Positions 5,252-8,200 of a DNA stretch of 64,000 bases are shown here, in pieces. Each line of letters begins with the position of its first letter. Within the stretch, counting starts at the first letter, position 1. Position numbers: made by a program. Origin of the DNA: Escherichia coli (GTDB lineage Bacteria; Pseudomonadota; Gammaproteobacteria; Enterobacterales; Enterobacteriaceae); the NCBI RefSeq assembly GCF_030384885.1, contig NZ_CP128613.1; one strand, written 5' to 3'.

Positions 5252-8200
5252 TAATGGGCGGTATTCTGAAACGGCGATTGTCGTGAGAACAGAATGGTTG
5301 CATCAGAATACAGATATAAAAAAACCGACATGACAGTCGGTTTTTTTATTTTTTCCGCCCAAGACTTGGTGGTTCCGGACAGAAATGAAACAGTCCTCAT
5401 CTAGCAAATGGATTATAAGTCAGGATGCCTACATATTCAAACAGCTATGTTGGCGATACAATCCCGACGCTAGTAGTGATACTGCCTCAAGGAATTACCG
5501 CAGTGCGGAAAAGTACTTTTAAGTCCTGGTCAGGATACAGGTGGTGCTGATTCTGGTGCTCTAATTTGGAGAGAGGCAGTCCTCATCTAGCACATGAAGA
5601 AAATCATAGTTACAGGCAACGTAAGGGTAAGCTGTGATTGTCTTTCTCCCTTAAGGGAGCAACGGATGAAAACTTTTCTCGATAAAGTTCTCATCGTTCT
5701 TAAGGCGCTAATCGCGCTGCTGGAACTGATCCGCCAGTTTATTGAATAACTGAGGAAACGTAGCTAAGGCCGAAGGTTTACCACCTTCGGCCTTTAAAAA
5801 AACCGACATGACAGTTGGTTTCAGATTTATTGCCAAAATGCACGCTGTTCATGCCAGATGCGGCGTGAACGCCTTATCCGGCCTACAAAATCTCGAAAAC
5901 TCAATATATTGCACGATCTTCGTAGGCCAGATAAGACTTAGCGCATCAGGCAATCTAACACCTGTCATCACCCCGCAAACTGCCTGAACAGCGCCTTACC
6001 CTTAACCAGTCGCGCACCCAACCAGCCGCCGAAAAGCGACAGCAGCAGTGCACCGCTACAAGGCAGAACAATCCACAATCGCCAGTCTGGCTCCCACGGG
6101 AAATCAAACACTTTTGATTGCAGTACCGCCAGTGCCGTTTCCGCACCAATTGCGGCCACCAGGCCGGAGACAAACCCGAGCATGGCGAACTCACACCACA
6201 ATGTCGTGCGCAGCAGTTTTTTGCCCGCACCGAGAGTGCGCCACACCACCAGCTCCTGATGACGCTGACGCATTCCCACCTGCACCTGTGCCAGCAACAG
6301 CAACATACCGCAGGCGGTGACCAGCACCACCATCACTTCCAGCGCCCGACTTACCTGCTCCAGCACCTGACCGACCTGTTTTAAAATCGCGCCAATGTCT
6401 AACAGGCTAATGGTCGGGAACTGGCGGTTGAGTTGCGTCAACATGCCGTTGCCATTCTCCCAGCGGAAACTGGTAAGCCAGCTCTGCGGCTGCCCGTCTA
6501 ATGCCCCTTCCGGGAAAATAAAATAGAAATTAGGCCGCAGACTTTCCCAGTCCACTTTGCGCAGGCTGGTCACTTTAGCGCGGAACTCCTGGGTATCGCC
6601 CATAAAGGTGACGGTATCGCCGAGGGTAACATTTAAGCGTTTCGCCAGCCCCTCTTCCATCGATACTTCATCGGCTTTTGGCGGCCAGTTACCAGCGACA
6701 ATCGGATTATGATCGGGCCGCGTATTTTGCCAGGTGAGATTGAGTTCGCGGTTGAGCGCCTCATCTTCATTGCCTTCTGTCGGCTTGCCGTTAATCGCCG
6801 TCAGCCGCGCCCGCACCACCGGATAAAACGATTCCGGGACTATCTGATGTTCCGCGAGGAACGCTTTTAGCGGAGTAACCTGTTCTGTGGCGATGTTGAT
6901 TAAAAAGTAGTTAGGACTTTCTGGCGGTAGCTGCTGTTGCCAGCGATCGAGCAGATCGCCACGCAACACCAGCAACAGTGCCAGCAGCATAAAGGAGAGC
7001 GAAAATGCCGAAAGCTGGCTTAACGTTGACCACGGCTGACGTAACAGGCGGCTAACCGCCAGGCGCAGAGGTAGCGATTTCAGCGTCATGCGGCGAAGTA
7101 CATTCAGCAGCATCCAGCCCAGCACACCGCACAGCAAAGCCAGTACTACCGCGCCCGCCAGCACCGCCCAGAGCAGCATACTGCCGCCCATTAATCCGGC
7201 GAGCAGCAGCACAACCACCACACTGACAATCGGCAGATAAAACTTGAGCGGCCAGACGTTCGCGACCACATCATTACGCAATACGCGTAAAGGCTGTGTT
7301 GCCAGCAACAAGCGGTACGGTCGTAGCCCCACCAGCAGCGAGATGACCGTCATGGTGCCAAGCGCCCACAGCCATGGCCAGAGGCTGGCAGGCGGTAGTG
7401 CGGCAGGCAGAACGGGCTTGAGCAGCACCATCAACACGTTTTCGAACAACAGGCCTATCGCCCCGCCGGTAACGGCTGAAAGCGCCAGCACCATCAGCCA
7501 CTGACCGACGATTAGCTTACGCAGTTGCGCTCGCCCAGCCCCCAGCGTTTTGAGGATCGCCACCAGATCGTAGCGACTACGACAGTAATGATTCATCGCC
7601 ACCGCCACCGCTGCCACTGCCAGCAGCAAGGTCAGAAGCGCCGAAAGCAGCAGAAACTGTTGCGAGCGTTCCATCGATCGCCCCAGCGCGCCTTCGTCCT
7701 GTTCCAGACCGTACCAGCGTTGTTCGGGTTTAAGCTGAGGTAACAACCATTTCTCATAGCCGTCGAGCTGGTTCTCGCTGCCGCCGAATTTATAGCGCCA
7801 GGTGACCCGACTCCCCGGCTGCACGGCTCCGGTTTTATCAACATCCGCCAGATTCATCATCAGACGCGGAGCCATCTGGAAGGGGTTAAAACCGGAATCC
7901 GGTTCCTGAATCACTTCTCCGGCAATCCGCAAGGTGGCATCGCCCACGTCAATGGTGTCGCCCGTTTTCAGGTTAAGCAATGCCATCAGGCGTGGGGCCA
8001 GCAATACGCTGCCCGCCTGTGGTTTCAGGCCAGGGGGATTGGTTTGCAGATCGCCATACATCGGGTAGATATCATCCACCGCTTTGACGTTCGCCAGTTG
8101 CGGCGTATCGCCCGCAAAAGTCATCGTGGCGAAAGTCAGCTGCTTGCCGACTTTCAGGCCGCGCTTTTGCGCTTCCTCCAGCCACGCTTGCGGCACTTCG

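Follow-up and report, generated by a model that had tools for sequence, protein, structure and literature searches.

The RhsD locus of E. coli was reportedly the subject of ECOR surveys by Hill and co-workers in the 1990s. In E. coli K-12, RhsD lies between ybbP and selU (ybbB), a junction listed as Rhs 'position 3' (ybbA/ybbP-ybbB) in Table 3 of Jackson et al. 2009 (PMC2935791). The same study inferred an origin of position 3 within E. coli, once one pathogenic group had split off, and reported E. albertii as having no Rhs at this position (PMC2935791). That some strains carry RhsD here and others do not is a polymorphism already described for this locus, and what fills the site in Rhs-free strains is left undescribed in the published work. 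A second system of relevance is dinQ-agrAB, a type I toxin-antitoxin system of K-12 (Weel-Sneve et al. 2013, PMC3567139; Kristiansen et al. 2016, PMC5066626), in which the agrB site of dinQ has been placed at G88-A119 (PMC5066626). The related dql (dinQ-like) family was published in 2016 with 14 dql sequences (Kristiansen et al., PMC5066626). Here we describe a selU-ybbP junction at which the two systems meet: the site is free of Rhs sequence and is occupied by what appears to be an additional dinQ-like cassette.

The DNA that we analysed (the window) is a stretch of 64,000 nucleotides from E. coli contig NZ_CP128613.1. It has the identical chromosomal junction and flanking genes of the RhsD locus of K-12, but in the Rhs-free state. 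The main features of the junction are the following.

4160-5254, plus strand: selU/mnmH, tRNA 2-selenouridine synthase, the left flank (NCBIfam NF008749; mnmH in RefSeq)
5255-5967, no strand assigned: selU-ybbP intergenic spacer, 713 bp, without Rhs sequence
5269-5838, no strand assigned: dinQ-like (dql)/agr cassette, 570 bp, an indel relative to REP-only alleles
5839-5961: REP pair (BIME), with a REP at 5849-5886 and an inverted REP near 5921-5952
5968-8382, minus strand: ybbP, ABC transporter permease, the right flank (NCBIfam NF041854; RefSeq)

The genes selU/mnmH and ybbP form a convergent pair, with stop codons at 5252-5254 and at 5968-5970 (minus strand), respectively. Their products scored well above the equivalog cut-offs of the NCBIfam models, at 757 bits against 548 for MnmH (NF008749) and 1459 bits against 999 for YbbP (NF041854), and the neighbouring allS and ybbA were likewise identified by NCBIfam. 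The gene order, allS-selU followed by ybbP-ybbA-tesA, is the same in the window and in K-12. E. coli 2013C-4282 (NZ_CP027579.1) is 100% identical to the window, and its RefSeq record lists allS, mnmH, a small 'dinQ' gene, ybbP, ybbA and tesA in this order.

In K-12 MG1655 (NC_000913), ybbP and selU are separated by 7,301 bp containing rhsD (annotated as b0497), ybbC, ylbH, ybbD, ylbI and ylbG. Homology between K-12 and the window ends at position 5256, 2 bp beyond the selU stop codon, and resumes at 5962, 6 bp from the ybbP stop codon, and between these two points the two genomes have nothing in common. Searches of the 64-kb window by blastn with the K-12 island and by tblastn with RhsD (E <= 1e-3) found no Rhs core, tip or relic. 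The initial annotation had placed RhsD between ybbP and selU in K-12 and had noted that it is missing here, with the two genes about 710 bp apart and REP units and a small-ORF module in its place. The comparison with K-12 confirmed this picture: RhsD does occupy the junction in K-12, according to both the NC_000913 annotation and Table 3 of PMC2935791, and the 713-bp spacer of the window contains an exact REP at 5857-5886 and a gene of the DinQ family.

The same annotation had called the site empty, which did not hold. When the spacer was aligned with the minimal alleles of E. albertii and E. coli K56-43, ...GATTCTG was directly joined to TGCACGCTG... in the latter two, followed by REP units, and the 570 bp at 5269-5838 were missing from them. 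The spacers of such minimal alleles, as in E. albertii, K56-43 and strain SCU-306, are 58-240 bp long. The site is therefore better described as occupied by an accessory dinQ-like toxin-antitoxin cassette, a correction of small significance. The remainder of the spacer is largely the REP pair. Three further copies of the exact REP occur in the window against zero expected by chance, and the sub-threshold Rfam matches in this region are to the REP-derived families naRNA4 and ES036. The REP part of the query also gave about 20 short matches per genome, and REP copy number differs among alleles.

Within and around the cassette, the following elements were recognized.

5317-5343: copy 1 of D1, a 27-bp hairpin repeat forming the sRNA terminator (repeat search)
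5406 to 5316, minus strand: AgrB-like antisense sRNA, candidate antitoxin, about 90 nt (Rfam RF02891)
5412-5440, minus strand: predicted sigma-70 promoter of the sRNA, TTGAAT-17-TATAAT, agreeing with the consensus at 10 of 12 positions
5457-5462, plus strand: candidate -10 element (TACAAT) of the dql mRNA, read from the sequence
5577-5596, plus strand: sRNA target core in the dql 5' UTR, a direct repeat of 5391-5410 (19 of 20 positions identical)
5647-5662, plus strand: hairpin CTCCC-TTAA-GGGAG containing the Shine-Dalgarno sequence (5652-5658)
5666-5749, plus strand: dql toxin gene, 27 aa, MKTFLDKVLIVLKALIALLELIRQFIE (RefSeq CDS 'dinQ', WP_349808740.1)
5766-5794, plus strand: G+C-rich hairpin 3' of the toxin gene (inverted repeat I4, 12-bp arms, 100% complementary)
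5795-5821: copy 2 of D1, 26 of 27 positions identical to copy 1

The 27-aa peptide matched the NCBIfam model of toxin DinQ (NF041472) with 40.9 bits, above the cut-off of 30, but fell short of the DqlB model, with 24.5 bits against a cut-off of 35. On the opposite strand, the AgrB-like sRNA matched RF02891 over the full length of the model with 51.9 bits (gathering score 40), and its predicted fold has a free energy of -31.2 kcal/mol (z -4.2). A terminator scan placed a terminator hairpin at the sRNA 3' end. The predicted promoter of the sRNA was the sole promoter-like site with a strong sigma-70 consensus in a scan of 5200-6000. The candidate -10 element at 5457-5462 would give the dql mRNA a 5' UTR of about 196 nt, and its distance to the start codon matches that of K-12 dinQ. 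The RefSeq record carries the 27-aa 'dinQ' CDS alone and leaves the AgrB-like sRNA unannotated; the sRNA could be added to it.

The 5' end of the sRNA has its complement at 5577-5596 of the dql 5' UTR, a segment that precedes the ribosome binding site. The predicted duplex between the sRNA and the UTR has an energy of -76.5 kcal/mol, compared with -45.7 +/- 4.3 kcal/mol for shuffled sRNA, and is thus about 7 standard deviations stronger. The Shine-Dalgarno hairpin is preserved in dinQ and in plasmid dql genes despite sequence changes, and a consensus fold of the 5' UTR that includes this hairpin contained 15 compensatory pairs in an alignment of just six sequences (the window, K-12 dinQ and four plasmid dinQ/dqlB genes). 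When single sequences were folded, the probability that the Shine-Dalgarno sequence is unpaired was 0.43-0.54 in the full-length, processed and sRNA-bound mRNA, with no clear switch between an open and a closed state. Downstream of the gene, the hairpin at 5766-5794 aligns with the position of the K-12 dinQ terminator.

Comparison with dinQ-agrAB, to which the cassette has about 70% nucleotide identity, revealed three likenesses. Both encode a 27-aa hydrophobic peptide with an ALIALLELIR core; both have a 5' UTR of about 195 nt that shares a predicted consensus fold and places the Shine-Dalgarno sequence inside a hairpin; and in both an sRNA of about 85-90 nt is encoded divergently upstream, arises from a direct repetition of a UTR segment and ends in the same terminator stem. 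There are also differences. The cassette has one sRNA, whereas K-12 has two (agrA and agrB), and its gene starts with ATG, whereas K-12 dinQ starts with GTG. At the position homologous to the LexA box of K-12 dinQ (TACTGTATGATTATCCAGTT), a feature of dinQ proper but not of every dql gene, the cassette has no equivalent, and the best CTG-N10-CAG-like site in a LexA scan, at 5429-5444, has a mismatch in its core, so that none was convincing. Since the LexA box is not conserved, SOS control of dql is doubtful. Finally, the cassette lies at selU-ybbP and the canonical locus at gor-arsR. Because the canonical gor-arsR dinQ locus is present in 5,422 of 5,426 E. coli genomes, the selU-ybbP cassette is an extra, accessory paralogue. 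The dqlA and dqlB genes of enterobacterial chromosomes and conjugative plasmids belong to the same family by their peptide and 5' UTR, and dinQ/dqlB genes about 70% identical to the cassette were found on 2,384 plasmids, most of them conjugative. As read from its sequence, the cassette has the architecture described for dinQ/dql by Kristiansen et al. 2016 (PMC5066626). The components of the locus are all of known kinds: Rhs polymorphism was described in 2009 and the dql family in 2016, REP elements are well known, and the toxin gene is already annotated.

By analogy with these described systems, from which we infer the transcription starts, processing, toxicity, mode of repression and regulation of the dql cassette, an antisense RNA of about 90 nt (5406 to 5316), made constitutively, would pair with the 5' UTR of the divergent toxin mRNA. 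This pairing would close the ribosome binding site and block translation of the 27-aa peptide, a putative inner-membrane peptide, and would probably trigger cleavage of the sRNA-mRNA duplex by RNase III. The net effect would be that a small membrane-active peptide is kept silent.

To place the window among other strains, 5,426 complete E. coli genomes were queried with junction-spanning sequences. An RhsD-type junction adjoining ybbP was found in 2,859 genomes (for example K-12, O157:H7 and O26:H11) and an island with an Hcp-Tle1-like T6SS effector in 574, while selU and ybbP were contiguous in 1,938. These three classes total 5,371 genomes, or 99%. As a possible typing reference, the census puts about 53% of the genomes in the RhsD class, 11% in the Hcp-ET class, 24% in the dql cassette class and 11% in the class of REP-only or minimal alleles. 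The cassette itself occurs in 1,325 genomes (24%) at 1,331 places, always chromosomal, and in 1,311 of these carriers it lies in an uninterrupted selU-ybbP spacer. The strain of the window thus has the variable junction in an Rhs-free state that is common and has been described before. An assembly artefact was considered and rejected, as the arrangement is common to 1,311 complete genomes.

The second type of island, Hcp-ET, combines Hcp and a toxin domain with DUF2931 immunity-like genes, and shares the junction with RhsD. The Hcp-ET island of strain JJ2434 had no match anywhere in the 64-kb window. In JJ2434 (locus L009, 8674-14002) it carries a gene for a 667-aa fusion of Hcp with a Tle1-like phospholipase domain and, after it, three DUF2931 genes. 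Its left junction falls within the 3' end of selU, so that mnmH is 1107 bp long instead of 1095 bp. E. whittamii (locus L013, 1071-4654) also has an Hcp-ET island at the same junction.

Taken together, the results suggest that the window carries an Rhs-free allele of position 3 which most likely never held RhsD, and that a dinQ-like type I toxin-antitoxin cassette, together with a REP pair, occupies its spacer; we hold this reading with high confidence. The E. albertii junction holds neither Rhs nor the cassette, and the absence of Rhs from E. albertii, together with the published late origin of position 3, was counted in favour of a primary absence. From this we infer that the Rhs-free condition is probably the ancestral state.

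The alternative that has to be weighed most carefully is secondary loss, in which an ancestor bearing RhsD acquired an Rhs-free cassette allele from another lineage by recombination in selU and ybbP. Across selU and ybbP (4160-8382) the window has about 96.5% nucleotide identity to nearly all other E. coli, and just two records have flanks at least 99% identical; the cassette between the two genes, unlike these flanks, is 98.7% identical to many strains. This contrast could reflect recombination in the vicinity of the hotspot and, since the cassette is less diverged than its flanks, the spacer could have been imported in place of an Rhs island. Mosaic alleles do occur. The 58-bp spacer of SCU-306 (locus L005, 1596-1653) is a hybrid of two alleles, its left part being the edge of a REP-only allele and its right 27 bp the terminator hairpin at the ybbP side of the Hcp-ET island (L009, 13975-14002), which indicates that alleles at the selU-ybbP junction recombine and collapse. 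Furthermore, every allele differs over the whole spacer, as replacement predicts. Against this, the window retains no Rhs relic, several E. coli lineages as well as E. albertii are without Rhs at this site, and the published reconstruction has position 3 as a late gain. We therefore regard secondary loss as unlikely, and the primary absence of RhsD as the better account.

Given that 1,311 of the 1,325 carriers have an uninterrupted spacer, the cassette and an Rhs or Hcp-ET island can occur together at the junction in at most 14 genomes. One conceivable reason is that the dql/agr cassette protects the Rhs-free allele from replacement by such islands. Replacement of the spacer would remove the sRNA gene while the toxin mRNA persists, and the recombinant would be killed or arrested. 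If true, this would help to explain the near-absence of the cassette and T6SS toxin islands together, but we consider such protection a very unlikely function of the cassette.

Since unrelated toxin islands (RhsD-type in 2,859 genomes and Hcp-ET in 574) lie between the same flanks, the view that the junction is a polymorphic hotspot of T6SS-type toxins is supported. The initial annotation had spoken of a polymorphic toxin integration hotspot; the hotspot stands, but a defined mechanism of integration does not, as the islands have no integrase and their junctions have no direct repeats, shared core or duplicated sequence. The alleles differ over the entire spacer, from stop codon to stop codon, and no common remnant is left. 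This pattern is what one would expect from allele replacement and not from insertion at a defined attachment site. The use of one junction by two unrelated toxin islands, and the presence of ylbG, a helix-turn-helix gene fragment, at the edge of the K-12 island, would agree with the spacer being the unoccupied attachment site of a self-mobile Rhs/toxin island that integrates site-specifically. However, this reading finds neither an integrase nor repeats to work with, and the boundaries do not coincide: the Rhs allele replaces the full stretch from one stop codon to the other, and the Hcp-ET island is joined within the 3' end of selU. We find it highly improbable.

The two D1 copies lie 478 bp apart, on either side of the sRNA-toxin pair, and D1 is a homologue of the terminator hairpins of agrA and agrB in K-12. 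D1 was considered as a target-site duplication and rejected, because it lies inside the indel and is part of the sRNA terminator. It is accordingly hard to credit that the cassette is a small mobile unit whose insertion into an existing terminator hairpin created a 27-bp duplication: although direct repeats of that length surround both genes and another Escherichia genome has a single-hairpin allele, the homology to the K-12 terminators makes D1 part of the sRNA gene, the copies are within the 570-bp indel rather than at its ends, the single-hairpin allele is more simply a deletion between repeats, and one chromosomal site is known for the cassette in all its carriers.

The single-hairpin allele is found in SCPM-O-B-8794 (locus L011, 11158-11184), a genome labelled E. 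coli that belongs to a divergent Escherichia, with selU about 90% identical. Its one D1 copy is bordered by the same outer flanks, as would follow from a deletion between the D1 repeats.

A different deletion was seen among the carriers of the cassette. In about 195 of the 1,325, including ST69 strains, about 108 bp are deleted between two short repeats, AGTCCTCATC and AGTTCTCATC. In Z226-7 (locus L006), compared with 5576-5683 of the window, the sRNA target, the Shine-Dalgarno sequence and the first 11 codons are all missing. Judged by the elements lost, the deletion inactivates the putative toxin and keeps the sRNA.

The convergent selU-ybbP pair is conserved across Enterobacteriaceae, and neither blastn nor tblastn with the peptide found the cassette at selU-ybbP outside Escherichia. 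In some Buttiauxella the spacer is just 60-200 bp. In Citrobacter, Kluyvera, Kosakonia, Superficieibacter and others (loci L016-L036), a porin-like gene lies between selU and ybbP; it is conserved, encodes about 377 aa without a Pfam match, and is often accompanied by a metNIQ-like ABC transporter. The presence of the porin-like gene at the junction in other genera suggests that the short spacer of Escherichia is a derived state, which received its cargo later.
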